From Actinomycetota bacterium (lineage in GTDB: Bacteria > Actinomycetota > UBA4738 > HRBIN12): DNA of 64,000 nt. Below are positions 2,998 to 24,515 of the stretch, piece after piece; position 1 is the first letter of the stretch; every line of letters starts with the position of its first letter. The position numbers were made by a program, and so were the translations under genes. The DNA lies in contig JBDTNY010000127.1 in NCBI GenBank assembly GCA_039933515.1, forward strand, positions 7,160 to 71,159, in the 5' to 3' direction. The notes beneath the pieces are model-generated. The model searched no databases and was not told where the DNA came from. It was given only the letters and a program-made list of their open reading frames with translations.

Positions 2998-4287
2998 ATG
3001 ACCTCTGGCGGCGGTGAGAAACCCTCGCGGCTCCGAGGTCTCGTTCTCGACATCACTCCGCTCCGTCGCTCCCACGACTTCCGGCTGCTGTGGGGCGGAC
3101 AATTCGTCTCCGAGCTCGGGTACCAGTTCGCCCGGGTCGCGATCTACGTGCAGGTCTGGGAGCTCACGAAGTCGCCCGCGGCCGTCGGGCTGACGGGGCT
3201 CACGGGGCTCGTCGCACTGTTCGGCGGGACCCTGACGGGGTCGTCGTTCATCGACGCGAAGGATCGCCGATCGATCCTGCTCTGGGCTCAGGTGGCCTTG
3301 GCGGTCTCGGCCGGCATCCTGCTCGGCGGCGCGATCGCCGGGCATCCACCGCTCGTCTTGATCTACGGCGCGAACGCCCTCACCGCCTTCGTCGGCGCGA
3401 TCGAGGATCCCGCGCGGTCCGCGATGATCCCCCGGCTCGTGGGCAAAGACCTGATCCCGTCCGCCCTGGCCCTGAACCAGGTGCTGTGGCAGACCGTCCA
3501 GATCGTCGGACCCGCGATTGCTGGCGTGTTGATCGCCCACTACGGGTTCGGGCTCGCGTACGGGGTCGACCTGGTCACGTACGGCGCGCTCTTCCTCGCC
3601 GCGTTCCTGATGGCGCCGATGCCCCCCGAACACGACCCGGACTCGGCGTCGGGATGGGCGGCCGTCAAGGAAGGGTTCGCCTTCGTTCGTGCCCACCGGC
3701 TGATCTCCTCCACGTTCGCGATCGACCTGATCGCGATGGTCTTCGGGATGCCGGCGGCGCTCTTCCCGGTCCTCGCGATCTCCCAGTTCCATCGCGGCCC
3801 CGAGGTCGTGGGGCTCCTGTTCGCCGCGCCGTCGGTCGGCGCCTTGGCCGGGGCTTTGTCGGGCGGCTGGGTCCGCCATGTTCGCCGGCAGGGCGAGGCC
3901 GTGATCTGGGCCGTGGCGGCCTGGGGCGCCGCGATCGCCGCGTTCGGGCTCGTGGGATCACACCTATGGTGGGCGCTCGGGTTCCTCGCCGTCGCGGGCG
4001 CGGCCGACGTCGTGAGCGCGATCTTCCGCTCCACGATCACCCAGGTGAACACGCCCGACCGATTGCGTGGGCGGCTCTCGGCCATCTTCATCTTGGTGGT
4101 GACGGGCGGGCCGCGGCTCGGGGACTTCGAGGCGGGCGTCGTCGCCACGCTGTTCTCGCCGACCGTCTCGGTGGTGAGCGGCGGGCTCGCCTGCATCGCG
4201 GGCGCGGGACTTGTGGCGATCGTGTACCCCCAGCTCCGCGCGTACCGCCCCGGCGTCGATGCGCCTCGCACGCCCGGCGAGCCATGA
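2998..4287 (+). CDS. MFS transporter (EntS/MFS_3-like)
   Basis: 429 aa, about 12 predicted TM helices. N-terminus RSHDFRLLWGGQFVSELG is typical of the enterobactin-exporter-like MFS family. Confidence 0.75.
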   Translation: MTSGGGEKPSRLRGLVLDITPLRRSHDFRLLWGGQFVSELGYQFARVAIYVQVWELTKSPAAVGLTGLTGLVALFGGTLTGSSFIDAKDRRSILLWAQVALAVSAGILLGGAIAGHPPLVLIYGANALTAFVGAIEDPARSAMIPRLVGKDLIPSALALNQVLWQTVQIVGPAIAGVLIAHYGFGLAYGVDLVTYGALFLAAFLMAPMPPEHDPDSASGWAAVKEGFAFVRAHRLISSTFAIDLIAMVFGMPAALFPVLAISQFHRGPEVVGLLFAAPSVGALAGALSGGWVRHVRRQGEAVIWAVAAWGAAIAAFGLVGSHLWWALGFLAVAGAADVVSAIFRSTITQVNTPDRLRGRLSAIFILVVTGGPRLGDFEAGVVATLFSPTVSVVSGGLACIAGAGLVAIVYPQLRAYRPGVDAPRTPGEP

Positions 4288-4372: not shown

Positions 4373-6076
4373 GTGACCGAGGCTGTCCGGGGGGTGGAGC
4401 TCCGCGTGCTCGACGGGCCCAACCTCTACTTCCCACGCCCCGCGATCAAGCTCACCCTCGCGGTGCCCGGCTGGATGCGCGCGTCCGAATCACGCGTCTC
4501 GGAGGTGGCCGGGCGACTTGGGCTCGAGGGGGCGGCGACGCCCGGCGCGCCCGGGTCCCAGCACCGGCGCCGGTTCGCCGCGCGGATCGCGGCCCAGCTG
4601 ACACGACGCCAAGCGATCGCATCGGGCGCGCGCCGGCTGGCCGTCAAGGCATCCCCGGGCAGCGGGCTCGATGAGATCGTGATCGCGTTCCCCTGGCGCC
4701 GGCGCGGCGCGGCCGAGGCGCTCGCCAGGGAGACGGCCCGCGGCATGGAGGCGATCCTTCGCCGCTCCCCCGACCGATGGGTCGCCGCGTCGGGACGCCG
4801 GCTCTCCGGCGCCGATCCTGGCCCCGAGCCCGCGGTTCCCGATCCGTCAGTCCCCGTGATCCAGGTCACGGGGACGAACGGGAAGACGACTTCCGTGCGC
4901 CTGCTCGCGCACCTGGTCCGCGCGGCGGGCCGAACAGTCGCCTACTCGACGACGGACGGGGTTTACCGCGACGACGGCGTGATGGTCGAGGCCGGGGACT
5001 ACAGCGGCTTCGGTGGCGCGGGGATCGCGCTCGCCCAGCACCCGGACGTCGCGGTGCTCGAGACCGCGCGCGGGGGCTTGTTGCTGCGGGGTAGCGGGGT
5101 GCTTCACAACGACGTCGCGGTCGTGACGAACGTGAGCGCCGACCACCTGGGGCTCCACGGGGTGGACACGGTCGACCAGCTCGCCGAGGTGAAGGCGATC
5201 ATCACGAAGACGACCCGGCCCAGCGGGTGGAGCGTGCTGAACGCCGACGATCCGCGGGTGCTGGCCATGCGGCGGCGCGCGACGGGACGGCTGTGGCTCT
5301 GCTCACCCTTCCCCGACCAGCCTGCGCTCCACGAGGTCCAGCAGGAGGGAGGGCGGGCGATGACCGTCCTCGACGGGTCGCTCACGTGGTTCGAGGATCA
5401 CGTCGCCCATCCCCTGCTGCCCGTCGAGGATGTCCCGGTCACCCTCGCGGGGATCTCTCGCACCAACACCCAGAACGCGCTCGCGGCCGCGGCCGCGGCG
5501 CTCGCCGTCGGGCTCGCCGAGCGCGCGGTCGTCCGGGGCCTGCGGGGCTTCGTCCTGGACCCCGAGCGCAATCCCGGGCGCACGAACCTGTTCCGGCTCG
5601 ACGGCAGGGTCGTGGTGATCGACTACGCCCACAACGAGGCGGGGATGCAAGGGCTCACCGAGGTGATGGACGGGTTGCGCAGCCTCGGGCGCGACGTCTG
5701 GCTCGCGATCTGCACCGCGGGAGACCGCACCGACGAGATCTTGCATGCCTTCGCGCTCCGCGCCGCGCTCGGATCCGATCATCTCGCGGTGGCCGACCTC
5801 TTGCGCTACCTCCGTGGACGCCATCGGGATGACATCGTCGCGCATCTCCGGGCCGGGGCGCGAGAGGCGGGGGTCGACGATGTGCCCGCGTACGAAGACG
5901 AGCTGCACGCGCTGCGCGGCATGCTGCACGAGAGCCACCGCGGCGACGTCGTGGGCGTCACCGCGCTCGGCATGCGGGCCGAGATCTTCGCTTGGCTCGA
6001 AGAGGCCGGCGCACGGCCGCTGGGTCCAGGGGACGTTCGGCGGATCGTGCGCGGTGCCCGGGCTTCGCGGACATAG
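4373..6076 (+). CDS. Cyanophycin-synthetase-like Mur ligase family protein (CphA N-domain plus M-domain, no ATP-grasp G-domain)
   Basis: The N-terminus ELRVLDGPNLYFPRPAIKLTLAV resembles the CphA N-domain start of the canonical CphA in this window (VFRGPNYWSYEPSIRLLVDLG). It has a Mur-ligase P-loop (VIQVTGTNGKTTS) and a DYAHN motif, and its C-terminal region aligns with the CphA C-terminus. No ATP-grasp segment lies between the N-domain and the ligase domain. The start could instead be the GTG at 4394. Confidence 0.65.
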   Translation: MTEAVRGVELRVLDGPNLYFPRPAIKLTLAVPGWMRASESRVSEVAGRLGLEGAATPGAPGSQHRRRFAARIAAQLTRRQAIASGARRLAVKASPGSGLDEIVIAFPWRRRGAAEALARETARGMEAILRRSPDRWVAASGRRLSGADPGPEPAVPDPSVPVIQVTGTNGKTTSVRLLAHLVRAAGRTVAYSTTDGVYRDDGVMVEAGDYSGFGGAGIALAQHPDVAVLETARGGLLLRGSGVLHNDVAVVTNVSADHLGLHGVDTVDQLAEVKAIITKTTRPSGWSVLNADDPRVLAMRRRATGRLWLCSPFPDQPALHEVQQEGGRAMTVLDGSLTWFEDHVAHPLLPVEDVPVTLAGISRTNTQNALAAAAAALAVGLAERAVVRGLRGFVLDPERNPGRTNLFRLDGRVVVIDYAHNEAGMQGLTEVMDGLRSLGRDVWLAICTAGDRTDEILHAFALRAALGSDHLAVADLLRYLRGRHRDDIVAHLRAGAREAGVDDVPAYEDELHALRGMLHESHRGDVVGVTALGMRAEIFAWLEEAGARPLGPGDVRRIVRGARASRT

Positions 6077-6127: not shown

Positions 6128-7633
6128 ATGCGCGCCCAACTAGACTCCGCCCCGATGGCATCGCCGCGAGGGTCCCGTTCCACCTCCGCCATGGAGGCCA
6201 AGGTCGTCGTCGCGTCCAACCGCGGGCCCGTGAGCTTCGACAAGGACCAGCGAGGCAGGCTCGTGGCTCGCCGGGGCGCCGGCGGGCTGGTCACGGCGCT
6301 GTCCGGGGTGTTCTACCGGGACGACACCTCGTGGATCTCGGCGGCGATGACCGACGGCGACCGCGCGGTGGCCCTGAAGGGCCGAACGGTCACCTCGGAT
6401 TCCCACCAACGCATGCGCTACGTGGTGATCCCCCCGGAGCGCTACGACGCCTACTACAACGAGATCGCCAACCGGATCCTGTGGTTCGTCCACCACAGTC
6501 TGTGGGACACGCCGCGCAGTCCGATGTTCGACGACGCGACGCAGGAGGCCTGGCATCACTACGTCGAGGCGAACCGCGCGTTCGCCCTCGCCCTGGCCGA
6601 CGAGGCGGCCGACGATCCCGTGTACCTGATCCAGGACTACCAGCTGTGTCTCGTGCCCGCGATGCTCCGCGAGCTCCAGCCCGACGCGAAGATCGCGCAC
6701 TTCTCGCACACCCCGTTCGCGGGGGCGACCTACCTCCGGATCCTCCCCGTCGAGATGCGCACAGCGGTGATCCGGGGGATGGCCGGCGCGGACGTCCTCG
6801 GATTCCAGTCGAAGCAGTGGGCGGAGAACTACCTTCTGTCGGCACGGAGCCTCAAGGGGATCCGAGTGCTGCGGGGGGGCCGGCTCGACGTTGACGGGCG
6901 GGTGGCGGCCGTACGGGCGTTCCCGGTGGCCGTGAGCGCCGAGCCGATCCGGGAGAGCGCCTCCCAGCCCGAGGCCGAGTCGGTGCGGGAGGAACTCCGC
7001 GCATGGGCCGGCGACCGTGCCGTGGTCCTGCGGGTGGACCGTCTCGAGCCCTCGAAGAACATCCTGCGAGGGTTCCTCGCGTTCGGGCTGTTCCTTCGCC
7101 GCTTCCCCGAGTGGCGTGAGCGCGTGCAGTTCCTGTGCCTGTTCAGCCCCTCGCGCGAGGAGGTGCCCGAATACCAGACCTACGGGGAGGAGTGTCTCGC
7201 CGAGGCCGAGCGCGTGAATCGGGAGTTCGGCACGAAGGACTGGACCCCGATCGAGGTCAAGGTCCAGGAGGACTATGCCTACGCGGTCGCCGCGTACGAC
7301 CTCTACGACGTGCTGTTCGTGAACCCCACCTACGACGGCATGAACCTGGTCGCGATGGAGGGACCGCTCGTCAACCGCCATGACGGCGTCGTGCTGCTGT
7401 CGCGGAACGCTGGTGCCTACACCAGGCTCGGCCGGCACGTGATCGGCGTGAACCCCTTCGACCTGGCCGAGACCGCCGAGGCGCTCGACGAGGCCCTGAC
7501 GCTGGCACCCGAAGACCGGGCGCGGCGGGCGCGCGGACTGGCGCGCACCGTGCAGGCACACACGCCTGCGAGCTGGCTCGCGAGCCAGCTCGAGGCGGTC
7601 GACCAGGTGCGGCCCCCCGGCCGTCCCCGCTGA
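6128..7633 (+). CDS. otsA: alpha,alpha-trehalose-phosphate synthase (GT20)
   Basis: GT20/OtsA signatures (VVVASNRGPVSF, LIQDYQLCLVPAMLRE, HFSHTPF, NPTYDGMNLVAMEG). The true start is probably the ATG at 6191 (MEAKVVV...). Confidence 0.85.
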   Translation: MRAQLDSAPMASPRGSRSTSAMEAKVVVASNRGPVSFDKDQRGRLVARRGAGGLVTALSGVFYRDDTSWISAAMTDGDRAVALKGRTVTSDSHQRMRYVVIPPERYDAYYNEIANRILWFVHHSLWDTPRSPMFDDATQEAWHHYVEANRAFALALADEAADDPVYLIQDYQLCLVPAMLRELQPDAKIAHFSHTPFAGATYLRILPVEMRTAVIRGMAGADVLGFQSKQWAENYLLSARSLKGIRVLRGGRLDVDGRVAAVRAFPVAVSAEPIRESASQPEAESVREELRAWAGDRAVVLRVDRLEPSKNILRGFLAFGLFLRRFPEWRERVQFLCLFSPSREEVPEYQTYGEECLAEAERVNREFGTKDWTPIEVKVQEDYAYAVAAYDLYDVLFVNPTYDGMNLVAMEGPLVNRHDGVVLLSRNAGAYTRLGRHVIGVNPFDLAETAEALDEALTLAPEDRARRARGLARTVQAHTPASWLASQLEAVDQVRPPGRPR

Positions 7634-7643
7634 ACCCAGATCC

Positions 7644-8381
7644 CTAGAGCCTGCGGAGCAGTCCGACCAGCCCGGCGGGCCCGTCCACCACGAGGTCGGC
7701 CGCGGCCGTGAGCGCCGGCGGCGTTTCCGGCCCGTGCACGGCGACCTTGACCGTCACGATCCCTTTGTCCGCGAGCTGGTCGAGGGTCTCGAACGCGCGG
7801 AGATCGGCGAGGTCATCGCCCGCGTAGAGCACCGCCTCGAGCTCCGCCTCAGCCACGATCGCCGCGACCGCACCTCCTTTGAGGGGGCGTCCCGCGGGAA
7901 CGAGCTCGAGCACCTTCTTGCCCGCGATCAGCTCCATGCCGGCCTCGGCCGCGATCGGGGCGAGCAGCTCGGCAAGCCGGGCCTCGGCGTCGGACGGGTC
8001 ACTCGTGGCCCGGTAGTGGGCCGCGATCGAACCGCCCTTGGGCTCGACCCGGACGCCCGCGATCGCCGATACGATCTCGCTCACCCGCTGCTCGAGCCCC
8101 TCGGGGAGCATCGCCTCGTCCTCGATCCCGTAGAGGGCGGCCAGCCGGACCCCGGGGACGCCGATCAGATCTTCGAGCTCGCGGCGGGTTCGTCCCGAGA
8201 CGACGGCGACCACCGCGTAACGCAGGGCAAGACGGGCGAGCGCATCTCGCGCGCCCTCACGGATCTGTGCGAGCTCGGGGCGGGCGACGATCGGGCTGAG
8301 ACTCCCGTCGAAGTCCACGAGGATCCCGACGCGCCCCTCGACGGCGGCGAACGCCTCGAGGGCGCGAGGCCTGGGCGACTC
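7644..8381 (-). CDS. otsB: trehalose-6-phosphate phosphatase (HAD-IIB)
   Basis: The C-terminal 246 aa of track ORF 7644..9287 is OtsB-like (ILVDFDGSLSPIV, LAGKKVLELVPAGRPLKGGAV, YAGDDLADLRAF). Start ATG at 8381 has a GGAG 7 nt upstream. The upstream 300 codons of the track ORF are antisense of the GH15 gene. Confidence 0.8.
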   Translation of the reverse strand, partial: ESPRPRALEAFAAVEGRVGILVDFDGSLSPIVARPELAQIREGARDALARLALRYAVVAVVSGRTRRELEDLIGVPGVRLAALYGIEDEAMLPEGLEQRVSEIVSAIAGVRVEPKGGSIAAHYRATSDPSDAEARLAELLAPIAAEAGMELIAGKKVLELVPAGRPLKGGAVAAIVAEAELEAVLYAGDDLADLRAFETLDQLADKGIVTVKVAVHGPETPPALTAAADLVVDGPAGLVGLLRRL

Positions 8382-8459
8382 CATCGATACTCCTGTCGTG
8401 GCGGTCGGGTGGCGATCTCCGCCAAATCCTAGTAGGCGGGGAGACCACCGATAGAGTGG

Positions 8460-10406
8460 GTGCCCGTGAGCAGCGCGTCCATCGTCCCCTTCCCCGGCGT
8501 AGCTGAGCCGCCTCCCGGCGGCGAGGTGTCCCCTCTGCAGAGCCGGCACGGCCCGTTCACTCCGATCGCGGAGTACGGGTTCTTGTCCGACCGCGAGGTA
8601 TCCGCGCTGATCGGCCCCAGCGGCAGCGTCGAGTGGCTCTGCCTGCCCAGGCCCGACAGCCCGAGCGTCTTCGGGGCGATCTTGGACCGGTCGGCGGGCG
8701 CCTTCCGGCTGGGGCCCGCCGAGCTCCTCGTGCCGGCGGGGCGCCGGTATCTCCCCGGCACGAACGTGCTCGAGACCACATGGCAGACCCGGACCGGATG
8801 GCTGCTGGTCCGCGATGCCCTCGTTCTGGGGCCTTGGCAGGACGAAGAACGACCCGAGGACTACACGCGCCCCCCCGGCGACTATCGGGCCTCGCACATG
8901 CTGCTCCGCGCCGTGCGCTGCGTCCAGGGCCAGGTCGATCTCGTGCTGAACTGCGAGCCGGTGTTCGACTACGGGCGCACCGATGCCCGATGGGAGTACA
9001 CGGGTCCCGGCTGGAGCGAGGCCCTCGCCACCGGCGGCAGCGGCGACCCGCATCTGCGGCTCACGACCGACATGCGCCTGGGCCTCGAGGGGCGCGCGGC
9101 GGTCGCGATCACCCGGCTGAACGACAACGAAGCCGCGTTCGCGGCCCTGTCGTGGGATGGCGACGTGAACCCGCCGCCGGCCGACGCCGAGGAAGCGTGG
9201 CAGATGATCCACGCGACCTCGGACTTCTGGCGCGGCTGGTTGAACAAGGGCGAGTTCCCCGACCATCCCTGGAGGAGCCATCTCCAACGAGCGGCGCTGA
9301 CCTTGAAAGGTCTGACGTACGCCCCGACGGGAGCCCTGATCGCCGCCCCGACGACCTCGCTCCCCGAGTCGGCGGGCGGCGAGCGGAACTGGGACTACCG
9401 CTACAGCTGGGTGCGCGACGCGACGTTCGCGCTCTGGGGCCTCTACTCGCTGGGGTTCGACTTCGAGGCCAACAGCTTCTTCTACTTCATCGCCGACCAG
9501 ATCCGCGATGGTTCGCCATTACACGTGATGTACGGGGTGGGCGGCGAGACCGAGCTCGAGGAATCCACGCTGGACCACCTCACCGGCTACGACCACGCGC
9601 AGCCCGTGAGGATCGGCAACGCCGCGTGGTCGCAGGACCAGCACGACGTGTGGGGCGCGCTGCTCGATTCGGTCTACCTGCATATGCGCTCGGGCGAGTT
9701 CCTCTCGGGCGTGACGTGGTCGGGCCTCGAGCGACAGGTCGAGCGCGCGATCGAACGATGGCGCGAACCCGACCGGGGGATCTGGGAGGTCCGCGGCGAA
9801 CCCCAGCACTTCACGATGTCGAAGATCATGTGCTGGGTGGCGTGCGACCGGGGCGCTCACCTGGCCGACGTGATGGACCGTCCGGAGCTCGCCGAGCGCT
9901 GGCGCACCGAGTCCGAGACGATCAAGGCTGACGTGCTCGCGCACGGGCTCGACGCGCGCGGCGTCTTCACCCAGGCTTACGGCTCGACGGCCCTCGACGC
10001 CTCCCTGCTCCTGGCTCCGCTGATGCGGTTCCTGCCCCCCGACGATCCACGGATCCGCGCGACCGTGCTGGCGATCGCCGACGAGCTCACCGACGACGGA
10101 CTCGTGCTGCGATACCACGTGGACGAGACCGACGACGGGATGCAGGGTCCCGAGGCGACGTTCGCGATCTGCTCGTTCTGGCTCGTGTCGGCGCTCGCCG
10201 AGATCGACGAGCTCGAGCGGGCGCGGGCGCTGTGCGAGCGGATGCTCGCCTACGCGAGCCCGCTGGGTCTCTACGCCGAAGAGATCGACCCGCGCACGGG
10301 ACGGCACTGGGGCAACTACCCGCAGGCCTTCACCCACCTGGCGCTGATCAACGCGCTCACGCATGTGATCCGGGCCGAGGAACGCCTGACCGAACGCCCG
10401 GGCTGA
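8460..10406 (+). CDS. glycoside hydrolase family 15 protein (trehalase/glucoamylase-type)
   Basis: GH15 catalytic-domain motifs (GALIAAPTTSLPESAGGERNWDYRYSWVRD, DVWGALLDSVY) and an N-terminal beta-sandwich (DREVSALIGPSGSVEWLCLPRPDSPSVF). Start uncertain: GTG at 8460 or a downstream GTG near 8527. Confidence 0.75.
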   Translation: MPVSSASIVPFPGVAEPPPGGEVSPLQSRHGPFTPIAEYGFLSDREVSALIGPSGSVEWLCLPRPDSPSVFGAILDRSAGAFRLGPAELLVPAGRRYLPGTNVLETTWQTRTGWLLVRDALVLGPWQDEERPEDYTRPPGDYRASHMLLRAVRCVQGQVDLVLNCEPVFDYGRTDARWEYTGPGWSEALATGGSGDPHLRLTTDMRLGLEGRAAVAITRLNDNEAAFAALSWDGDVNPPPADAEEAWQMIHATSDFWRGWLNKGEFPDHPWRSHLQRAALTLKGLTYAPTGALIAAPTTSLPESAGGERNWDYRYSWVRDATFALWGLYSLGFDFEANSFFYFIADQIRDGSPLHVMYGVGGETELEESTLDHLTGYDHAQPVRIGNAAWSQDQHDVWGALLDSVYLHMRSGEFLSGVTWSGLERQVERAIERWREPDRGIWEVRGEPQHFTMSKIMCWVACDRGAHLADVMDRPELAERWRTESETIKADVLAHGLDARGVFTQAYGSTALDASLLLAPLMRFLPPDDPRIRATVLAIADELTDDGLVLRYHVDETDDGMQGPEATFAICSFWLVSALAEIDELERARALCERMLAYASPLGLYAEEIDPRTGRHWGNYPQAFTHLALINALTHVIRAEERLTERPG

Positions 10407-10473
10407 CGCCCGGCTGGATCGGCCCAGGCTCGAGGCCGCGCCACGAACGCGGCGCATGAGCCGCGCCGGGGCA
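10407..10473. terminator. possible weak bidirectional terminator between convergent GH15 gene and gnd
   Basis: Imperfect GC-rich inverted repeat cGGCGCatgagccGCGCCg in a 67-nt convergent gap. No U-tract. Confidence 0.2.
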
Positions 10474-11490
10474 TCAGGCAGGCTGCTCGTCGTGCCCGCC
10501 GAACCCCTTGCGCATCGCCGAGAGCACGCGGTTGGCGAAGTCGTCGTTGCCGCGCGAGGCGAAACGTGAGAACAGCGCGGACGAGAGCACCGGCGTCGGC
10601 ACGCCCTCGTCGATCGCGGCGATCGCGGTCCAGCGCCCTTCGCCGGAGTCCGAGACCCGGCCCTCGAATCCCTCGAGGTCCGCAGACGCGTTGAGGGCTG
10701 CCGCCGAAAGGTCCAGCAGCCAGGACGCCACCACGCTTCCCCGGCGCCACACTTCGGTGATCTCGGCGACGTCCAGGTCGTATCGGTAGAACTCGGGATG
10801 GGCGAGCGGCGCGGTCTCGGCGTCCTTCGCCCGTTCGGCGGTGCCGTCGTTCGCGTGATGCAGGACGTTCAAGCCCTCGGCGTAGGCCGCCATGAGGCCG
10901 TACTCGATCCCGTTGTGCACCATCTTCACGAAGTGGCCGGCGCCACCGGGGCCGCAGTGCAGGTATCCACGCTCGGCGGGCGTCGGGGCGCCGACGCGGC
11001 CCGGGGTCCGGGGGGCGGCGTCCGGTCCCGGGGCGAGTGAGGCGAAGATCGGTTCGATCCGCGCGAAGACCTCGGGCTCGGCCCCGACCATGAGGCAGAA
11101 GCCGCGTTCGAGCCCGAACACCCCGCCGCTCGTACCGCAGTCGACATGGTGGACCCCCCGCTCGGCCAGGAGCGCGGCGTGCGTGAGGTCGTCACGGTAA
11201 TAGGTGTTGCCGCCGTCGATCACCACGTCGCCGGGGTCCAGATGGCCCGCGAGCTCCGCGATCGTCGCCGACGTGATCTCGCCCGCCGGCACCATGACCC
11301 ACACCGTGCGCGGCGCGGTCAGCGCGTCGACGAGCTCGGCGATCGACGTCGCACCCGTCGCACCCTCGGCGGCGAGCAGGGTCACGGCGTCGGGATCGAC
11401 GTCGTAGCCCGCGCAGCGGTGCCCGTCGCGCATCAGCCGGCGAACGAGGTTGGACCCCATCCGGCCGAGCCCCACCATCCCCAGCTGCAT
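10474..11490 (-). CDS. gnd: 6-phosphogluconate dehydrogenase (decarboxylating), short YqeC/Gnd-like form
   Basis: The C-terminal 338 aa of track ORF 10474..12762 is Gnd-like (MQLGMVGLGRMGSNL Rossmann start, GGAGHFVKMVHNGIEYGLMAAYAEG). Start ATG at 11490. The rest of the track ORF reads through pgi in another frame. Confidence 0.8.
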   Translation of the reverse strand: MQLGMVGLGRMGSNLVRRLMRDGHRCAGYDVDPDAVTLLAAEGATGATSIAELVDALTAPRTVWVMVPAGEITSATIAELAGHLDPGDVVIDGGNTYYRDDLTHAALLAERGVHHVDCGTSGGVFGLERGFCLMVGAEPEVFARIEPIFASLAPGPDAAPRTPGRVGAPTPAERGYLHCGPGGAGHFVKMVHNGIEYGLMAAYAEGLNVLHHANDGTAERAKDAETAPLAHPEFYRYDLDVAEITEVWRRGSVVASWLLDLSAAALNASADLEGFEGRVSDSGEGRWTAIAAIDEGVPTPVLSSALFSRFASRGNDDFANRVLSAMRKGFGGHDEQPA

Positions 11491-11504
11491 CGGTCGGTCG
11501 GTCG

Positions 11505-13184
11505 TCACTGGCTCAGCTCCTTCCCGCCCCCGTCGCCGTGCTCCGCCGCACGCATCGCACGGTACCGGCGGATCAGTGCGTTCGTCGAACCGTCGTGAGC
11601 CAGGGCGGGCTCGTCGCCGGCAACGAGCTCGGGGACGATCCGCTGCGCGAGCGCCTTCCCGAGCTCGACCCCCCACTGATCGAACGGATCGATCCGCCAG
11701 ATCGCCGCCTGGGTGAACACGTCGTGCTCGTAGAGGGCGACGAGCGCCCCGAGGATCCGCGGGGTCAGTCGTTCGGCCAAGATCGTCGTGCTGGGCCGAT
11801 TCCCCTCGAAGACGCGGTGCGGCACCAGCCACCTGGGCGTGCCCTCGGCCCGGACCTCGTCGGCGGTCTTGCCGAACGCGAGCGCCTCGGCCTGGGCGAA
11901 CACGTTCGACATCAACAGATCGTGATGCCCTCCGATCGGGTTCAGGCTCTGGGCGAACCCGATCAGATCGAGTGGGATCAGCTGGGTCCCCTGGTGCAGC
12001 AGTTGGTAGAACGAGTGTTGCCCGTTCGTCCCCGGCTCGCCCCAATACACGGCGCCTGTCGGATGATCGACCGGCACGCCGTCGACGGTCACGTGCTTGC
12101 CGTTCGATTCCATCGTGAGCTGCTGCAGGTACGCCGGGAAGCGCGCGAGGTATTGGTCGTACGGCATGACGCCCCACGACGTGGTGCCGAAGAACCCCCC
12201 GTACCAGACCGCGAGCAACCCCTTGAGCACCGGCAGGTTCCGCGCGAACGGCGCCGTCCGGAAGTGCTCGTCCATCGCGTGGAACCCCGCCAGCATCTCG
12301 TGGAATGGACCGGGGCCGATCGCGAGCATCGTCGACAGCCCCACGGCCCCAGCCATCGAGTACCGGCCTCCCACCCAATCCCAGAACCCGAACATGTGGT
12401 CCGGGTCGATCCCGAAGGCCCGCACGCTGTCGAGCGCGGTAGAGACCGCCACGAAGTGCCTGGCGACCGCTGCCTCGTCGCCGAGCCCCTCGACGATCCA
12501 GCCGCGAGCGGTGCGCGCGTTCGTCATCGTCTCGAGCGTCGTGAACGTCTTCGAAGCGATGATGAACAGCGTCTCGGCGGGGTCGAGGTCGCCCGTCGCT
12601 TCGTCGAACGCCGTCGGGTCGACGTTCGAGACGAACCGGAACGTGAGGTCGCGCCTCGCGTAGGCCCGGAGCGCCTCGAACGCCATCGAGGGACCGAGGT
12701 CGGAACCGCCGATCCCCACGTTCACGATGGCGCGGATCGGCCGCCCGGTGTGGCCGAGCCACCCGCCGGAACGGACACGATCCGCGAACGCCGCCATGCG
12801 ATCGAGCACCTCGTGCACCTGGGCGCCGACGTCGACGCCGCCGACCTCGAGCGAGGTGCCCCGCGGCAACCGGAGGGCGGTGTGGAGCGCCGGCCGATCC
12901 TCCGAGACGTTCACGTGGTCTCCCCGGAACATCGCCTCGATCCGCTCACGGAGCCCGCGCGCCTCGGCCAACGCCACCAGCAACGAGATCGTCTCGTCGG
13001 TGACGCGATGCTTGGCGTGATCGAGGTACAGCCCCGCGCCCTCGGCCGCCATGCGCTCACCACGGCCGGGGTCTGCGGCGAAGAGCTCACGCAGGTGCCT
13101 CGGGCCGATCTCGGCATGGTGTGCCGCGAGGGCTCCCCACTCGGCCGTTCGGGTCAGCGGGGACGTGGCTCCCGGCGTACCCAC
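11505..13184 (-). CDS. pgi: glucose-6-phosphate isomerase
   Basis: 559 aa with PGI signatures ([43 protein letters not shown]). Confidence 0.9.
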
Positions 13185-13191
13185 GTGCAGC

Positions 13192-13536
13192 TCACGCCTC
13201 CAGGGACGCGCAGGTCACGCACAGGACCGACCAGGCCCTGGCCTCGAGCCGCCCTTCGCCGATCTCGTTCCCGCACCGGTCACAGCGTCCGTAGGTGCCT
13301 TCGTCGAGCTTGGCGAGCGCGCGCGTGACATCGGCGAGCTTGGCGGCGAGCGCATCGGCCTGCCCGACCTTCTCGATCCGATCGACGGCCTGGCTCGTCC
13401 CCTCGCCCACGCGCTTGCCGAACCCGATCGTGGCCGCGGGATCGCGGTTCACGGTCGTCAGATCCCCGAGCGCTTCGATCAGTCCGGCGTGTTCGGCTTG
13501 GAGCCCCGCCCGCACAGCGTCGACGTCGATCGCCAT
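13192..13536 (-). CDS. DksA/TraR-family C4-type zinc-finger protein
   Basis: 114-aa product. Coiled-coil N-half plus [25 protein letters not shown] (CxxC-17-CxxC). Start ATG at 13536 is preceded by GAGG..AGGAAG and lies 10 nt after the cphA stop (13547). The track ORF 13192..13806 is over-extended. Confidence 0.6.
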
Positions 13537-13546
13537 CTTCCTGACC

Positions 13547-16312
13547 TCAGCCGACCATGTCGGGGTCGCCGCCCGAGCCCTGGATCCCGCCCTCGTCCTG
13601 CGCGCGCAGCACCTCCGGCGAGGCGACACCTCGCCGCTGCTCGAGCTCCTTGAAGACGGCGGTCGCGTAGTCGACGCAGAGGACGACGAGGTCGCCGGGG
13701 CGCGAGCGATCCAATGCCTTGCGGGCGGCCTCCATCTCGTCGAGCTCGACCTCCACCGAGCCGGCACGCGCACCGCCCGCCGCCATCGCCTGCTCCACTC
13801 CCTCACGGATCAGCTCGGCGGTATCGCCCCGCTTCCTCCCGCGGGCGTGGCGATCCTCGCGCACGATCACGTCGTCGAAGTAGCGGGCGGCCACCCGGCC
13901 CAACTCGCGCATGTCCTCGTCGCGCCGGTCGCCGGCGGTCGCGACGACCGCCACGCGCAGGTTCGCGGTCCACGATGCCTCGCCGGGGCGCTCGCCGGAA
14001 GGCGCGTCGGCCGTGAGCCGTTCCACGAAGTCCCCCAGGGTATCGAGGCCCGCGGCGTTGTGGGCATAGTCGATCACGACGGTCACCCCGTCGATCTCGA
14101 ACACGTTCAAACGCCCGGGTGCCTGATAGATCGAGGTCGTGAAGGACCGGAGTCCCTGCCGGATGTCGTGGAGATGGGCGCCGCCGGCATGCGCGGCTGC
14201 GGCGGCGGCCATCGCGTTCTGCACCATCATGCGGGCCTTGCCCTCGAAGGTCGCGGGAAGGGTGTGCACCCAAGCGATCGGCATCGTCCGGCGCCCTTCC
14301 TTGATGACCATCATCTCGCCGCGGGGACCCTTTTCGAGCACGACAGCCTTGCGCCCCCGCCTGATCCACCGGTCCACGAACTCGTGCTTGTCGCGCATCG
14401 TGAACAGGATCACGTTGCCCGCGCAGTGGCGGCGCATCTCGAGCACCAGGGGATCGTCGGCATTGAGCACCGCGGTGCCGTTGCGCGGGACCGCCTCGAC
14501 CGGCACCTGTTTGACCGCCGCGAGCTGCTCGAGGGTCTCGATCTCGCGCAGGCCCAAGTGATCGCCCGTGACGTTGAGGACCACCGCGACGTCGTTGCGC
14601 TGATAGCCCAGTCCCTCCCGCAGGATCCCGCCGCGTGCGATCTCGAACACCGCGAGATCGACCCGGGGATTCTGCAGCACCATCTGCGCCGACTTCGGAC
14701 CGCTCGCATCCGCGCGGCGCACGAGGCGCTCGTCGATGTAGATCCCGTCCGTTGTGGTGACTCCCACGTCGTGGCCGATCCCCCGGAAGATGTGGGCGAT
14801 CATCCGGGTCGTCGTGGTTTTGCCGTTGGATCCGGTCACCGCGATGATCGGGATCCGGCTGGGCGTCCCGGGCGGGAACAGCCCGTCGACCACGTGCTTC
14901 GCGACGTACTGAGGCTCGCCTTCGGTGGGGTGCGTGTGCATCCGGAAACCGGGCGCCGCGTTCACCTCGATGATCGCGCCACCCGCCTCCCGCACCGGCT
15001 GCGAGATGTCGATCGCGAGGAAGTCGATGCCGGCGACGTCGAGCCCGACGACCCGGGCTGCCTCCTCGGCGATCTCGACGTTGTCCTCGTGCGCCTCCCA
15101 GGTTCGGTCGATCGAGATCCCCCCGGTCGACATGTTGCCGGTGGCCGCCAGCAGCACGCGCTCGCCCTTGGGCGGCACGTCGTCGATGCCGAACCCCTGC
15201 TTCCTCACCAGCTCAAGCGCGGTCTGGTCGACCTTGATGCGCGTCAAGACTTTCTCGTGGCCGATCCCCCGGCGCGGGTCCTGGTTCTCCTTGTCGACGA
15301 GCCATCGGATCGTGTGCTTGCCGTCGCCGGTTACATGGGCAGGCACACGCTCGGCGATCGCGACCATCCGTCCGCCGATCACGAGCACGCGGTAGTCGCT
15401 CCCCGTCACGAACGACTCCACCACGACGAAGCCGCGCCGCGACTCTTTCTGCGCGCGGCGGAACCCGGTGCGGACGGCGCGATCGGTGCGCAGGTCCAGC
15501 GCCACGCCGCGACCGTGGTTGCCGTCGAGCGGCTTCGTGACGACCGGGAACCCGATCCCGACCGCGGCCGCGACCGCGGCGTCCTCGTCCCGGACGACCT
15601 CGCTCCTGGGCACCGGCAGGCCCGCCGCCGCGAGCAACTTGGTCGTCATCTTCTTGTCGCTGGCGATGTCGACGGCGAGCGCGCTCGTCATCGACGTCAT
15701 CGTGGCGCGGATCCGCTGCTGATACTTGCCCTGGCCGAGCTGCACGAGCGAGTTTTCGTTCAACCGCATCCAGGGGATGTCGCGCGTCACGGCCTCGTCG
15801 ATGATCGCCTGCGTCGAGGGCCCGAACTGACGACGCTCCGCGAGCAGGATCAACCGCTCGAGCTCGGCGTCGAACTCGAAGCCGAGCTCCGCCTTGATCA
15901 GGTGGTTCACGAGCCGGACCGCGAGCTTGCCGGCCTCGACCCCGACCGTCTCCTCGGCGTAGCCGTAGATCACGTTGTAGTGGCCGGGCTGCCCCGCGCT
16001 CCGCGTCTTGCCCCGCGAGATGTGGGCGCCCGACTCGCGTTGCAGCTCGAGCGCCACGTGCTCGGCGACATGCCCGAGCCACGTGCCGTCTTCGAGTCGC
16101 TCTCGGAACCCGCCGCGCTTGCCGAGCGAACAGGAGTGTTCCCCGACACCGGGGAGGGCCTTGAGGAGCTTCGTGTTGAAGCCCCGGATCGTGTTAGAGG
16201 GCCAGTGTTCGAGCGACCCGAGGTCGACGAGCAACCGGATGCTGGGCTCGTAGGACCAGTAGTTCGGCCCGCGGAAGACCTGGGCCTGCACGATCGTGAG
16301 GTCGGGCCGCAA
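13547..16312 (-). CDS. cphA: cyanophycin synthetase
   Basis: Full three-domain CphA: N-domain (VFRGPNYWSY), ATP-grasp G-domain (DKKMTTKLLAAAGLPVP, PVVTKPLDGNHGRGV, IEVNAAPGFRMH) and Mur-ligase M-domain (IIAVTGSNGKTTTT, VIDYAHN). The track ORF 13547..16459 has no ATG near the N-domain. Start placed at in-frame TTG 16312 (or GTG 16291) so it follows the cphB stop. Confidence 0.85.
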   Translation of the reverse strand: MRPDLTIVQAQVFRGPNYWSYEPSIRLLVDLGSLEHWPSNTIRGFNTKLLKALPGVGEHSCSLGKRGGFRERLEDGTWLGHVAEHVALELQRESGAHISRGKTRSAGQPGHYNVIYGYAEETVGVEAGKLAVRLVNHLIKAELGFEFDAELERLILLAERRQFGPSTQAIIDEAVTRDIPWMRLNENSLVQLGQGKYQQRIRATMTSMTSALAVDIASDKKMTTKLLAAAGLPVPRSEVVRDEDAAVAAAVGIGFPVVTKPLDGNHGRGVALDLRTDRAVRTGFRRAQKESRRGFVVVESFVTGSDYRVLVIGGRMVAIAERVPAHVTGDGKHTIRWLVDKENQDPRRGIGHEKVLTRIKVDQTALELVRKQGFGIDDVPPKGERVLLAATGNMSTGGISIDRTWEAHEDNVEIAEEAARVVGLDVAGIDFLAIDISQPVREAGGAIIEVNAAPGFRMHTHPTEGEPQYVAKHVVDGLFPPGTPSRIPIIAVTGSNGKTTTTRMIAHIFRGIGHDVGVTTTDGIYIDERLVRRADASGPKSAQMVLQNPRVDLAVFEIARGGILREGLGYQRNDVAVVLNVTGDHLGLREIETLEQLAAVKQVPVEAVPRNGTAVLNADDPLVLEMRRHCAGNVILFTMRDKHEFVDRWIRRGRKAVVLEKGPRGEMMVIKEGRRTMPIAWVHTLPATFEGKARMMVQNAMAAAAAAHAGGAHLHDIRQGLRSFTTSIYQAPGRLNVFEIDGVTVVIDYAHNAAGLDTLGDFVERLTADAPSGERPGEASWTANLRVAVVATAGDRRDEDMRELGRVAARYFDDVIVREDRHARGRKRGDTAELIREGVEQAMAAGGARAGSVEVELDEMEAARKALDRSRPGDLVVLCVDYATAVFKELEQRRGVASPEVLRAQDEGGIQGSGGDPDMVG

Positions 16313-16383
16313 CGGCGGCTTCTTGACCGCCGGCTCGGTCTTGCGCTCGCGGCGGTCGGCCCGGGTCCGCGTGACCTCCGACG

Positions 16384-17253
16384 TCACTCCGACGCCTCCC
16401 GCTCGGCCGCGAGCGCCCGCGGCCCCGCCAGCAACTCGCGTCGCCGCAGGTCGAACCAATACCCGCTCGGAAGGGAGTGCAGCACCGCGCCCGACACCAT
16501 GAGCGGTTTATACCCCTTCCCCCGATAGGCGTCGGTCTTGACGTGCCGGCCGTCGACGATCGTCACGGCGCCGCGACCGATCACGTGCAGCGTCCCGTCT
16601 TCGAAGACGATCGCGCTGGTGTCCTCGTCGAGGCCGAGGCCTAGGAGCGCGGGGGATTGCGCCACCAGGGCCATCAACCTGCCGATCCGGCCGCGCTGTT
16701 CGAAGTGCTGATCGACGACGAGGCCGCTCAAGATCCCGAGCCCCGCCGACAGCTGCACCATCCGGTGCTTCGGGGTGGGGCCGGCCGCCCCGAAGGCCAG
16801 CATGTGGCTCGCAAGCGCGCTCGCGCCGGCGCTCGTGCCGGCGAGCACCGCGCCTCGATCCCGCGCGAGGAACAGCCCATCGCCCACGCGCGTGCCGGCG
16901 ATCACCTGCGTGAGCCGGGACTGGTTCCCGCCGGTCAGGAACACGCCGGTCGCGTCGCGCAGGGCCGCCGCGGCGTCGGGATCATCGGCCTCCTCGCGCT
17001 CTTCGGGGTGGAGGCCGCTCACCCGGCCGATGCCCAGCCCGGTGAAAAGCTCCCGATACATCTCGGTGGCTTCGCTGCCGAGCGAGGACGCCGTCGAGAT
17101 CACGACGACGTGGCCGTCGGCGCCGCCCGCGAACTTCGCGAATCGGGACAGGATCACCTTGTCGCGGAACTTGTCCTCGGCCCCGCCGATCAGCATCACC
17201 GGGCCCGCCGTGCCCAGGTTCGCGATCGACCGGAGGTCACGGCCCGTCGTCAT
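16384..17253 (-). CDS. cphB: cyanophycinase (peptidase S51)
   Basis: 289 aa with S51 cyanophycinase motifs (MLIGGAEDKF, VFLTGGNQSRL, AVLAGTSAGASAL). Immediately upstream of cphA on the same strand. Confidence 0.85.
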   Translation of the reverse strand: MTTGRDLRSIANLGTAGPVMLIGGAEDKFRDKVILSRFAKFAGGADGHVVVISTASSLGSEATEMYRELFTGLGIGRVSGLHPEEREEADDPDAAAALRDATGVFLTGGNQSRLTQVIAGTRVGDGLFLARDRGAVLAGTSAGASALASHMLAFGAAGPTPKHRMVQLSAGLGILSGLVVDQHFEQRGRIGRLMALVAQSPALLGLGLDEDTSAIVFEDGTLHVIGRGAVTIVDGRHVKTDAYRGKGYKPLMVSGAVLHSLPSGYWFDLRRRELLAGPRALAAEREASE

Positions 17254-17300
17254 CAGCGCAGTGTAGCGGCCGGGTCCGGGCAGGCCGCTATCCTGCGGCG

Positions 17301-18218
17301 ATGACGTCGTTCTCGCTGCCGCTCACCGGTCCCGCCGGCGAACCCGTGGACCTTGTTCGGACGCTCTCCTCCCATGGATTCGCCGACCTCGCCCCCCTGC
17401 GGCTCGATCAGGCCGCCCGCACGCTCGAGCTCACCCTCAGGCTGCGGCGCGGACGGCCTCGGCGGGTGCGCGTCGGCCCGGGGCCCGGGCGCCGGGCGAG
17501 CGTGGAGATCCTGGGCCCCGCGGCGGGGCCGCGAGTGGCCGCCGAGGTCGTGGCCGGGGTCCGAAACGTGCTCCGGCTCGACCAGGATCTCTCCCGCTTC
17601 TACGAGCGAGCGGAGGAGGATCCCGAGCTCGCGTGGGTCACGTATGGCGCCGGCAGGATGCTCCGCAGCCCCACGGCCTTCGAGGACGTCGTGAAGACGG
17701 TCTGCACCACCAACTGCGCGTGGAGCGCCACCGTCCGGATGGTGCACGCGCTCGTGACGCACCTCGGCGACCCGGCGGTGGCCACGCGCGACCCGCTGGC
17801 CAACGCGTTCCCCACGCCCGCGGCGATGGCGGCGGCGCCGGAGGGCTTCTACCGGGACACCGTGCGCGCCGGGTACCGGGGCGCCTACCTGCGCCGGTTG
17901 GCCACCACGGTGGCGAGCGGCGATCTGGACCTCGAGGCGCTCGCCGCGGCCTCGGCCGACGCCCTCCCCGATAGCGAGCTCGAGGCGCAGCTGCTCGCGC
18001 TGCCCGGCGTTGGGCCCTACGCAGCCGCCCACATCATGATGACGATGGGGCGGAACCACCGGCTGATCCTCGACAGCTGGACCCGGCCCACCTACGCGCG
18101 CGCGTGCGGGCGCACCGCTGCGGTGTCCGACGCCACGATCCGTCGGCGGTTCGCCCGCTACGGCGACCATGCGGGGCTTGCCTTCTGGCTCTTCCTCACG
18201 CGCGACTGGGTCGACTAA
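17301..18218 (+). CDS. DNA-3-methyladenine glycosylase II family protein (AlkA-like, HhH-GPD)
   Basis: HhH motif LALPGVGPYAAAHIMM followed by a Gly/Pro-rich loop and Asp. AlkA-like N-terminal region. Confidence 0.55.
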   Translation: MTSFSLPLTGPAGEPVDLVRTLSSHGFADLAPLRLDQAARTLELTLRLRRGRPRRVRVGPGPGRRASVEILGPAAGPRVAAEVVAGVRNVLRLDQDLSRFYERAEEDPELAWVTYGAGRMLRSPTAFEDVVKTVCTTNCAWSATVRMVHALVTHLGDPAVATRDPLANAFPTPAAMAAAPEGFYRDTVRAGYRGAYLRRLATTVASGDLDLEALAAASADALPDSELEAQLLALPGVGPYAAAHIMMTMGRNHRLILDSWTRPTYARACGRTAAVSDATIRRRFARYGDHAGLAFWLFLTRDWVD

Positions 18219-18313
18219 CGAGGGTTGCCCTGCACCGCGAACGGAGCGCATACTGAGCCGGGCCCACCGGGCCCACCCCCGAACGAAACGAGCGATCCGA
18301 TGACGGTGCCCTT

Positions 18314-19573
18314 ATGGCGGTTCCGCACCGCGCAACGAGATTGGTCCCGCGCCCTGCGCGGCGCCTCTACCGCTCCTGGCGTGCCGAGAAGCGCACCCTG
18401 CGCCAGGGCTTGGTCGCGCTCACCCTCAGCACGGCCGCATCGTTCGTCGCCGGGCTGATCCTCGCCTCGATCACTCACACGCTGTCGGCGCTCCCCGGCT
18501 TGCTGGTGCTGATCCCCGCGGCCGTGGGCATGCGCGGCACGATCTTCGGAGCGATCGGCGCGCGCCTCGGCACGGCGTCGGCCGCCGGTACGTTCGAGAC
18601 GAACCTGAAGCGCGGCGGCGTGCTCGCGCAGAACGTCGAGGTGGCCTTCGTCACGACCTTCACCTCGTCCCTGTGGCTCGCGGCGCTCGCGAAGCTGGCG
18701 ACGTCGGCGTTCGGCGAGTCGTCGATCTCCTTCTGGGACCTCGTGACGATCTCCGTCGTGGGCGGATTCCTGGGATCGGTGTTGATCCTGCTCGTCACGC
18801 TCCTGCTGTCGGTGGTCTCGTACCGGCGGGGGTACGACCTGGACTCGGTCGCCACCCCGATGGTGACCGCGCTCGGCGACATGGGCACGCTCCCGTTGCT
18901 GTTCCTCGCCACGTTCTTGATCCGCAACGACGTCGCGAACGCGGTCCTTTCGGGGCTCTGCGTCCTCGCCACCGTCGTCGTCGTGGTCCGGGTGATGCTC
19001 GGTGATCAGCCCGGCGTCCGACGGATCGTCCTCGAGATGACGGCCGTCATCGCGATCACGCCGCTGCTCGACATCGCGGCGGGTTCCCTGCTGCAGGCCA
19101 AAGAGCCGGTGCTCGCGCGTCTTCCGGCCCTCTACATCTTGATCCCGCCGTTCGTGTCGCAGGCGGGCGCCTTGGGCGGGATCCTTTCCTCGCGACTGTC
19201 GTCCAAACTCCAGCTCGGTGTCATCACGCCCCGGGGTCTCCCCGAGCGCCCGGCCGTCATCGACGCATCGATCGTCGTGATCTTGGGGCTGGCGATCTTC
19301 ACGCTGATCGCGGTGGCCGGCGCCGGGCTGGCCGCGTTGGTCGGCCTGGACGGTCCGGGAGCCCTGCGAACGATCGAGGGCACGGTGCTCGCCGGCGTGA
19401 TCGTGCTGCCGCTGATCCTGGTCGTGGGGTACTACCTCGCCGTGTCCACCTCGAGGTTCGGACTGGACCCTGACAACCACGCCGTGCCCATCATCACGAG
19501 CGTCCTCGACCTCGCCGGGGTCGTCGCCCTCCTGCTCGCTATGTCACTATCGGGAGTAGCCCTCCATGGATGA
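18314..19573 (+). CDS. MgtE-family divalent-cation transporter-like membrane protein (tandem TM domains, no cytosolic N/CBS domains)
   Basis: Two repeats of MgtE TM-domain motifs (PGLLVLIPAAVGMRGTIFGAIGARLGT; DNHAVPIITSVLDLAGVV). About 10 TM helices. Confidence 0.55.
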   Translation: MAVPHRATRLVPRPARRLYRSWRAEKRTLRQGLVALTLSTAASFVAGLILASITHTLSALPGLLVLIPAAVGMRGTIFGAIGARLGTASAAGTFETNLKRGGVLAQNVEVAFVTTFTSSLWLAALAKLATSAFGESSISFWDLVTISVVGGFLGSVLILLVTLLLSVVSYRRGYDLDSVATPMVTALGDMGTLPLLFLATFLIRNDVANAVLSGLCVLATVVVVVRVMLGDQPGVRRIVLEMTAVIAITPLLDIAAGSLLQAKEPVLARLPALYILIPPFVSQAGALGGILSSRLSSKLQLGVITPRGLPERPAVIDASIVVILGLAIFTLIAVAGAGLAALVGLDGPGALRTIEGTVLAGVIVLPLILVVGYYLAVSTSRFGLDPDNHAVPIITSVLDLAGVVALLLAMSLSGVALHG

Positions 19574-23543: not shown

Positions 23544-24515
23544 TCAGAGCCAGTCCCGGTTCTTGAACACGAGGTAGAGCGTGAGCGAGGACCCCGCCAT
23601 CAGCGCGAGCGCGAACGGATAGCCGAAGCCCCATCCCAGCTCGGGCATATGGTCGAAGTTCATGCCGTAGATGCCGGCGATGAGCGTGGGAACCAGCACG
23701 ATCCCCGCCCATCCGGTGAGCTTCTTCATCACCTCGTTCAGCCGGTTGGCCGCCTGCGCCACCCTGACCTCGAGGAGCGACGTCAGCATGTCACGGACGT
23801 TGTCGGCCAGCTCAGCGACCCGCAACGCGTGGTCCATCACGTCGCGGAAGTACGGCGCGAGCGCCGGCGAGGCCAGTGAGGGCTGCTCCTGGATAAGGTC
23901 GATGCCCTGACGCAGCGGCATCGCGAACCGCCGCAGTCGCACCACCTCACGCTTCAGGCGGAACAGCCGCTGCTGGATGCCGGGATCGTCGCCCTGGCCG
24001 TCGTGCTCGGCGAATACGAGGTCCTCGGCGTCGTCGACGAGGTCCTCGAGCCGTTCGATCGCGGTGAGATAGCCGTCGACTACCTCGTCGATCAGCAGGT
24101 AGACGGCGAACCCCGCCGATTGGAGTTCGGGCTGACGTTCCCAACGCCGCATGACCTCGTCATAGACGATCGACGGATCTGCGCGGAGCGTCACGAGGTA
24201 CCCCTCTCCCGCGAGCAGGTGCAGCTCCGAATCCGCGGCGCCGCCGGCGGCGTCGACCTCGAGAGGATGCAGCACGATGAACGTGTAGTGCTGGAAGAGC
24301 TCGATCTTGGTGCGCTGACGCCCCTTGACCATGTCCTCGACCGTCAACGGGTGGAACCCGAACTCCTCGGCGAGGGTCGGCAGATCCCGATCGTCGGGCT
24401 CCGCGACGTCGAGCCATAGGAACGCCCCGGGCTGGGCCGCGAGCTCCGCCGCGTGGGCGATGTCCACGGGTTCGTTGGAGCGGACGCCGTCCCGGTAGAG
24501 CGTGGCCGAGATCAT
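23544..24515 (-). CDS. corA: magnesium/cobalt transporter CorA
   Basis: 323 aa. C-terminal two TM helices with the YGMNFD (GMN) motif. Confidence 0.85.
   Translation of the reverse strand: MISATLYRDGVRSNEPVDIAHAAELAAQPGAFLWLDVAEPDDRDLPTLAEEFGFHPLTVEDMVKGRQRTKIELFQHYTFIVLHPLEVDAAGGAADSELHLLAGEGYLVTLRADPSIVYDEVMRRWERQPELQSAGFAVYLLIDEVVDGYLTAIERLEDLVDDAEDLVFAEHDGQGDDPGIQQRLFRLKREVVRLRRFAMPLRQGIDLIQEQPSLASPALAPYFRDVMDHALRVAELADNVRDMLTSLLEVRVAQAANRLNEVMKKLTGWAGIVLVPTLIAGIYGMNFDHMPELGWGFGYPFALALMAGSSLTLYLVFKNRDWL

Follow-up and report, generated by a model that had tools for sequence, protein, structure and literature searches.

To our knowledge, cyanophycin outside the cyanobacteria is known mainly through its enzymes, and almost nothing is known of its regulation or of accessory factors. 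Among RefSeq genomes that carry both cphA1 and a cyanophycinase gene, the two genes are clustered in 81% (PMC10206079); clustering is therefore the rule, and the core of the operon considered here was already known. A second described enzyme, CphA2, derives from CphA1 by shedding one catalytic activity; it keeps the G domain, and its M domain is truncated and inactive (PMC10273328). Here we analysed a 64,000-nucleotide stretch of DNA from an Actinomycetota bacterium (hereafter the window; contig JBDTNY010000127.1 of assembly GCA_039933515.1; G+C content 70%). It contains an ordinary operon for the breakdown and synthesis of cyanophycin, a nitrogen-reserve polymer, from an uncultured soil actinobacterium. 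The operon consists of cphB (cyanophycinase), cphA (cyanophycin synthetase) and a short gene for a C4 zinc-finger protein with the TraR/DksA fold, here called ZF. An earlier note on this DNA had placed five genes on the minus strand at 10474–17253, in the order cphB, cphA, ZF, pgi and gnd, and curated protein models bore out all five together with their order and strand. The conserved unit, which that note had missed, is cphB–cphA–ZF.

The comparison set comprised 80 species-representative genomes encoding a CphA relative of 69–97% identity, the relatives being contigs of metagenome-assembled genomes (MAGs) throughout; individual loci carry L numbers below. Neighbours were mapped by tblastn, by a ZF hidden Markov model run against six-frame open reading frames and by clustering of our own gene calls; the neighbour maps depend on a home-made GC-position gene caller and on BLAST clustering, and the cphA tree is a rough neighbour-joining tree. 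In this set, cphB and cphA are adjacent almost everywhere. ZF follows cphA directly on the same strand in 52 of the 80 genomes and lies elsewhere within ±10 kb of cphA in none of them; the distance between the two genes stays within 32 nt in 46 of the 52 loci. Two of the ZF loci have one inserted gene and two are apparently frameshifted. On the tree, the ZF-bearing loci fall into a single clade, within which ZF seems to have been lost four times. The gene after ZF is of at least 14 kinds, for example GH15, otsB, an MMPL gene, an oxidoreductase gene or a CphA paralog. Both pgi and gnd stand behind ZF only in the window and in L001 and L002, where cphA is 93% or more identical; pgi lies ~3 kb further downstream of ZF in L003 and L004, and gnd alone is found downstream of ZF in L020 and L023. 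Because ZF is linked to cphA in 52 loci and pgi plus gnd stand behind ZF in only three genomes, the conserved unit is the three-gene one, and the pgi–gnd extension is recent and local. The coupling of cyanophycin to the pentose-phosphate pathway that had been read from this gene order is thus not conserved.

The first gene, cphB (16384–17253, minus strand), encodes a 289-amino-acid (aa) S51 peptidase (TIGR02069; PF03575). It scores 236 bits against TIGR02069 (cutoff 126.6) and aligns end to end with the solved cyanophycinase 7uqv (198 bits), including the GTSAGA motif of the serine nucleophile. No Shine–Dalgarno sequence precedes its ATG; a −10-like hexamer, TACACT (17260–17265, minus strand), lies 6 nt upstream instead. 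In actinobacteria, leaderless mRNAs are typified by a TANNNT −10 element 6–8 nt ahead of the start codon. In 55 of 70 loci, among them those of the MAGs labelled Dormibacterota and Chloroflexi, cphB has an in-frame ATG or GTG with the motif TA[C/G]ACT 6–8 nt upstream. ZF and pgi lack such an element and are preceded by purine-rich ribosome-binding sites. Since TANNNT-type spacing without a Shine–Dalgarno sequence marks leaderless mRNA, cphB is probably the first gene of the unit and its mRNA leaderless, with TACACT as the putative promoter. A sigma-70 promoter scan of 9500–18500 gave no promoter matches, such a scan being uninformative at 70% G+C. Just upstream of cphB and on its strand, ~35 loci (L006, L009, L011, L015–L047) carry a ~95-aa gene with no family match (cluster c10, MLAFTDWAIEILSR...), placed between an ABATE/zf-CGNR gene and cphB. 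The window lacks this gene; there, a divergent gene for a helix-hairpin-helix (HhH) glycosylase-like protein (17301–18218) abuts cphB across a 47-nt spacer.

The product of cphA (13547–16387, minus strand; 946 aa) is a type 1 cyanophycin synthetase. It scores 1166 bits against TIGR02068 (cutoff 850), covering model positions 2–860 of 862, and 826 bits against the solved CphA1 7lg5 over query residues 32–913. Pfam matches identify an N domain (PF18921), a G domain (RimK/ATP-grasp) and a complete M domain (Mur_ligase_M and Mur_ligase_C). As a full-length equivalog with three domains and an intact frame, the protein has the features of CphA1 and is predicted to make multi-L-arginyl-poly-L-aspartate. 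Its start required revision. An in-frame GTG at 16387 overlaps the TGA of cphB by 4 nt (GTGA) and is preceded, 7 nt upstream and inside the 3′ end of cphB, by a Shine–Dalgarno sequence, GGGAGG (16395–16400, minus strand). The 4-nt overlap is present in 56 of 63 related loci in which both genes were called (53 as GTGA and 3 as ATGA), and its context, GAGCGGGAGGC..TC.GA-GTGA, is kept across loci. The ~30 codons between this GTG and the canonical N domain have a G+C content at third codon positions (GC3) of 0.90, which is the coding signature of the genome, and they encode a basic extension whose peptide, T.R..R.R.KREPA.KKP.L.PDL, is conserved in ~100 of 120 homologues. A start of the GTG 16387 type was also chosen by a composition-based gene caller, and the ENA gene calls on the relative P0143 have the same cphB/cphA overlap. 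GTG 16387 is therefore the best-supported start of cphA. In light of the overlap, the GC3 value, the conserved peptide and these gene calls, the NCBI calls for CphA in this lineage, at 917–921 aa, are probably too short.

The earlier note had considered only starts that do not overlap cphB; its candidates TTG 16312 and GTG 16291, and the spacing of ~70 nt that went with them, give way to the 4-nt overlap. Its remark on the missing ATG near the N domain is true but irrelevant, and GTG 16387 with its GGGAGG refutes the possibility that cphA is a pseudogene lacking a functional start. In the terrestrial clade, the N-terminal tail of CphA is of low complexity, basic and rich in Pro, Ala, Lys and Arg, with a length of 30–95 aa; in the window, its codons 1–25 correspond to 16313–16387. 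The tail, ~30 aa long here, is not found in the solved CphA1 enzymes. A co-occurrence of tail and ZF was considered and rejected, as ZF-less loci of other clades also carry tails of 30–95 aa.

ZF (13192–13536, minus strand; 114 aa) begins 10 nt after cphA and has a ribosome-binding site of its own, as originally described. The protein belongs to the TraR/DksA C4 zinc-finger superfamily (PF01258; 43.1 bits, gathering cutoff 24.9). Its AlphaFold2 (AF2) model (predicted local distance difference test, pLDDT, 86) consists of a helix at residues 5–27, a 17-residue loop, a second helix at 45–79 and a C4 zinc ribbon, CxxC-N17-CxxC, the cysteines of which (C85, C88, C106 and C109) are invariant in our alignment A1. 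The sole significant Foldseek matches were DksA proteins, the best being E. coli DksA bound to RNA polymerase (7khi_M; query template-modelling score, TMq, 0.76). Scores against the DksA equivalogs all fell below cutoff: 42.1 bits against 115.5 for TIGR02420, 40.8 against 105 for NF033459 and 31.8 against 289 for NF008045. The acidic tip motif DxxDxA was not found in ZF; in its place is the 17-residue loop R31-D32-P33...F39-G-K-R-V-G-E-G-T47, and this tip loop, RDP..(I/V)(G/S)FGKRxG(E/D)GT, is the most conserved segment of the ZF family. The C-terminal helix is also absent, the protein ending 5 residues past its last Cys. With the equivalog cutoffs missed and both the DxxDxA tip and the C-terminal helix lacking, a role for ppGpp is unsupported, and ZF does not appear to be a ppGpp-dependent DksA orthologue. 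The label of a ppGpp/RNA-polymerase-secondary-channel regulator, which the gene had been given before, came from the family name only. The literature searched gave no paper that connects cyanophycin with a DksA-type protein. In one ZF subclade (L016, L017, L029, L032, L033, L036–L038, L040, L041, L043, L060 and L074), the second CxxC is degenerate (for example CVDDA, CIDHA or CVGDA) and the fourth Cys is replaced by Asp or His; this loss suggests that zinc binding may be altered or lost in these orthologues.

Two further genes follow ZF in the window. The first is pgi (11505–13184, minus strand), which encodes a 559-aa glucose-6-phosphate isomerase (NF001211; 792 bits, cutoff 492) and starts with a GTG 7 nt past the ZF stop, where 8 nt had been counted. 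Residue 10 of the protein aligns to model position 6, and a start at 13052 proposed by our own gene caller was rejected, since the alignment to the curated model begins as early as residue 10 of the protein started at GTG 13184. The second, a gnd-like gene (10474–11508, minus strand), encodes a short-form decarboxylating 6-phosphogluconate dehydrogenase (TIGR00872, 419 bits against a cutoff of 297; NF007161, 452 against 271) of 344 aa from GTG 11508 or 338 aa from ATG 11490. GTG 11508 overlaps the pgi stop (GTGA) and lies 8 nt downstream of a Shine–Dalgarno sequence inside the 3′ end of pgi, AAGGAG (11517–11522, minus strand); the sequence at this site, GGAAGGAG, is conserved in L001, L002 and L020. 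At the position homologous to GTG 11508, the gnd of L020 has ATG-ACG-ACC-GAC (MTTDTPTELGMVG), and the downstream, internal Met is replaced. From these sequence comparisons, GTG 11508 is most likely the gnd start, which turns the 14-nt gap proposed previously into an overlap. The family model of the short gnd product has 299 positions, and the protein exceeds it by ~40 aa; it should therefore contain an internal extra segment, at residues ~160–200.

The junctions cphB/cphA, cphA/ZF, ZF/pgi and pgi/gnd thus measure −4, 10, 7 and −4 nt. Beyond gnd, the 67-nt region (10407–10473, minus strand) that separates it from a convergent GH15 trehalase-like gene (8460–10406) consists of GC-rich nested hairpins. 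Its RNA fold has a free energy of −55.8 kcal/mol (z = −2.68 relative to shuffles), and none of 200 shuffles was as stable. This spacer may act as a bidirectional terminator without a U tract; a consensus terminator scan did not flag it. An intrinsic-terminator scan of 9500–18500, weak at 70% G+C, found no site inside the cluster and one irrelevant match on the plus strand, and an Rfam scan of the whole window gave no matches. The spacing, the common strand, the lack of internal terminator-like sites and the hairpins fit a single transcription unit in the window genome. Of the single unit suggested in the earlier note, these features stand, but the gene order beyond ZF is not conserved.

Taken together, we consider it probable that the locus is a three-gene operon, cphB–cphA–ZF, of a clade of uncultured soil Actinomycetota, with a local pgi–gnd extension. 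We suggest that transcription begins at the A of the cphB ATG, driven by the TACACT −10 element, and would yield a leaderless mRNA. Translation of cphA would be coupled to that of cphB through the GTGA stop/start overlap and the internal GGGAGG, and ZF would be translated 10 nt further on from its own ribosome-binding site. A rearrangement in the window genome and its two closest relatives would have put pgi–gnd right behind ZF. As the two genes follow ZF directly, with a 7-nt gap and a second GTGA overlap, read-through probably gives a transcript of five genes that stops at the hairpins past gnd; the extension is local and without conserved functional meaning. ZF itself is a minimal DksA-fold protein, coiled coil plus C4 zinc ribbon, and most likely it would be produced alongside the cyanophycin enzymes and act as a modulator that binds RNA polymerase.

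Several observations weigh against this reading, and most of them favour an alternative in which ZF is a general transcription factor of the lineage that adjoins cphA by descent only and has no specific role in cyanophycin metabolism. The ZF linkage has a single origin on the cphA tree, and its persistence may therefore be partly inheritance. None of the sister clades that retain cphBA has ZF, and within the clade four losses have been tolerated, the four members without ZF still keeping cphBA. The synteny upstream of the operon (MgtE, TrkA-C/PhoU and HhH glycosylase genes) is conserved in the ZF clade as well. The FGKRxGxGT loop is found in 77 of the top 150 library representatives similar to ZF (889 representatives reach E ≤ 1e-10) and is thus common to a broad subfamily; we therefore rejected the notion of a family confined to cphA, and ZF belongs to a larger, uncharacterised subfamily, of which it forms a branch specific to its clade. 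Moreover, the tip loop is modelled at a pLDDT of only ~60, our search of the literature on DksA in Actinobacteria and Streptomyces found no characterised or experimental member of the ZF subfamily, and promoters inside coding sequence are possible, the scanner being weak at 70% G+C. Against descent alone, gaps of at most 32 nt have been kept in 46 of the 52 loci while the gene after ZF changed at least 14 times, and the position of ZF has been kept though the identity of the protein drops to 46%. The nearest other ZF subfamily, by contrast, has no fixed context and no link to cphA: in 80 metagenome loci, cphA or cphB was nearby in none. We regard association by descent alone as rather unlikely, though it is the alternative that survives best.

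Selection for the whole five-gene cluster as one unit, in which turnover of the nitrogen polymer would be coupled to pentose-phosphate entry under a ppGpp/DksA-type regulator, was the proposal of the earlier note. The four short junctions with two translational-coupling overlaps speak for it, as do the recurrence of pgi or gnd downstream of ZF in L003, L004, L020 and L023 and the appearance of trehalose genes (otsA, otsB and GH15) in the same slot. The full arrangement, however, exists only in three closely related genomes among 53 ZF-bearing loci, and the gnd of L023 has a leaderless-type start of its own, TAGGAT-N6-ATG. The proposed regulator fares no better, with 42 bits against a DksA cutoff of 115.5 bits and neither the DxxDxA motif nor the C-terminal helix, and we judge the proposal improbable. 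Least probable of all is that the target of ZF is a protein other than RNA polymerase; coupled translation might supply it, for example, as a stoichiometric partner of CphA or CphB or as their regulator. In favour of this, the cphA–ZF spacing is very tight, down to overlaps and 1-nt gaps, and DksA has a different tip loop, but the fold and all structural matches are those of RNA-polymerase-binding DksA proteins, and the N-terminal tail of CphA does not specifically co-occur with ZF.

Besides the three-gene operon, the neighbourhood contains a second cyanophycin-related gene. At 4373–6076 on the plus strand, the window encodes a cyanophycin-synthetase paralog that lacks the ATP-grasp domain and consists of a 150-aa N-terminal domain and a complete Mur-ligase M domain. 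The protein is 560–567 aa long, and its C-terminal 420 residues resemble the CphA M domain (38% identity over 417 aa; hhalign probability 100, 40% identity). Against TIGR02068, the paralog scores 328 bits over model positions 477–846 only. The Mur-ligase motifs, P-loop GTNGKTT, DHL, NADD and DYAHN, are invariant in the family. In the AF2 model (pLDDT 88), the top Foldseek matches are CphA1 M domains, aligned over the M domain only. The N terminus starts ELRVLDGPNLYFPRPAIKL and has a start motif, (V/L)xGPN(L/Y)(Y/W), in common with the CphA N domain; the hhalign match between the two N-terminal parts is weak (E 0.008, probability 5%, 18% identity). In 45 of 55 loci with at least 5 kb of downstream sequence, the paralog lies downstream on the opposite strand, convergent with cphBA(-ZF). 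Its range (loci L004–L080) covers Actinomycetota as well as MAGs labelled Dormibacterota or Chloroflexi, and in the latter two groups it can lie as little as 1–28 nt past the cphA stop. NCBI annotates the protein as 'Mur ligase family protein' and JGI as 'cyanophycin synthetase'. Literature searches for 'CphA3' and 'cyanophycin synthetase-like' returned only papers on the beta-lactamase CphA, and we found no description of the paralog.

The usual genes before the paralog, on the same strand (1639–4287, plus strand, in the window; clusters c14, c13 and c16), encode a GABA-type class-III aminotransferase (646 bits against NF004714, cutoff 639) and an MFS_3 transporter; a gene for a 96-aa PCD/DCoH-like protein often also precedes it. 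Together with the paralog, these genes appear to make up a second operon that is conserved and faces cphBA, and a link of this operon to arginine or GABA catabolism is possible. A bolder reading joins the two new components. In it, ZF would be a DksA-fold regulator devoted to cyanophycin metabolism and working through its RDP..FGKRxGEGT loop, and the paralog would be a stand-alone ATP-dependent ligase that adds Arg or another amine to poly-aspartate or partly stripped cyanophycin. We hold this joint reading to be unlikely. If it were true, ZF would be the first case, outside cyanobacteria, of a protein regulator with a specific tie to cphBA and the paralog the converse of CphA2, so that the cyanophycin locus of a soil clade would contain two undescribed components.

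Genes for reserve compounds are concentrated at 6128–10406 and 25381–37309 of the window. They include the trehalose genes otsA (6191–7633) and otsB (7644–8384, minus strand) and a polyphosphate kinase gene (27197–29686) together with genes for a CHAD protein and a NUDIX/His-phosphatase. A phosphate group consists of PHO4 transporter, PhoU, pstSCAB, response-regulator and histidine-kinase genes, and two Mg2+ transporters are encoded, MgtE (18341–19573) and CorA (23544–24515). No isoaspartyl dipeptidase (IaaA or IadA) was found among the Pfam-scanned gene calls of the 64-kb window, which were nearly all of its calls of ~150 aa or more.

The ZF linkage and the paralog lacking the G domain are modestly novel leads. 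Kept in the operon in ~50 soil species, ZF is a concrete candidate regulator, and the paralog is a candidate new polymer-modifying ligase. The revision of the CphA start, to 946 aa with a basic tail from the public 917–921 aa, matters for the expression of these enzymes, and the link to sugar phosphates, not being conserved, should not be built on.

Finally, we compared the locus with the known systems. Like the cphB–cphA clusters of cyanobacteria and other bacteria, it contains the same two enzymes on one strand, here with cphB preceding cphA. Relative to those clusters, the window adds a leaderless-type cphB start, a 4-nt overlap, a basic CphA tail of ~30 aa and the conserved ZF. In the literature searched, we found no description of a conserved third gene, of the leaderless and overlapping architecture or of the basic N-terminal tail. 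Like the DksA/TraR proteins (E. coli DksA, 1tjl and 7khi; P. aeruginosa DksA2, 4ijj), ZF combines a coiled-coil hairpin with a C4 zinc ribbon (Foldseek E 2.6e-5 to 4e-5; TMq up to 0.76), and the sequences are alike in helix 2 and the zinc finger. Unlike DksA, it has the RDP..FGKRxGEGT loop in place of DxxDxA and lacks both the N-terminal region and the C-terminal helix. CphA2 and the paralog are alike as CphA1 derivatives that have lost one catalytic activity, but the paralog is the converse of CphA2: its G domain is missing and its M domain complete.

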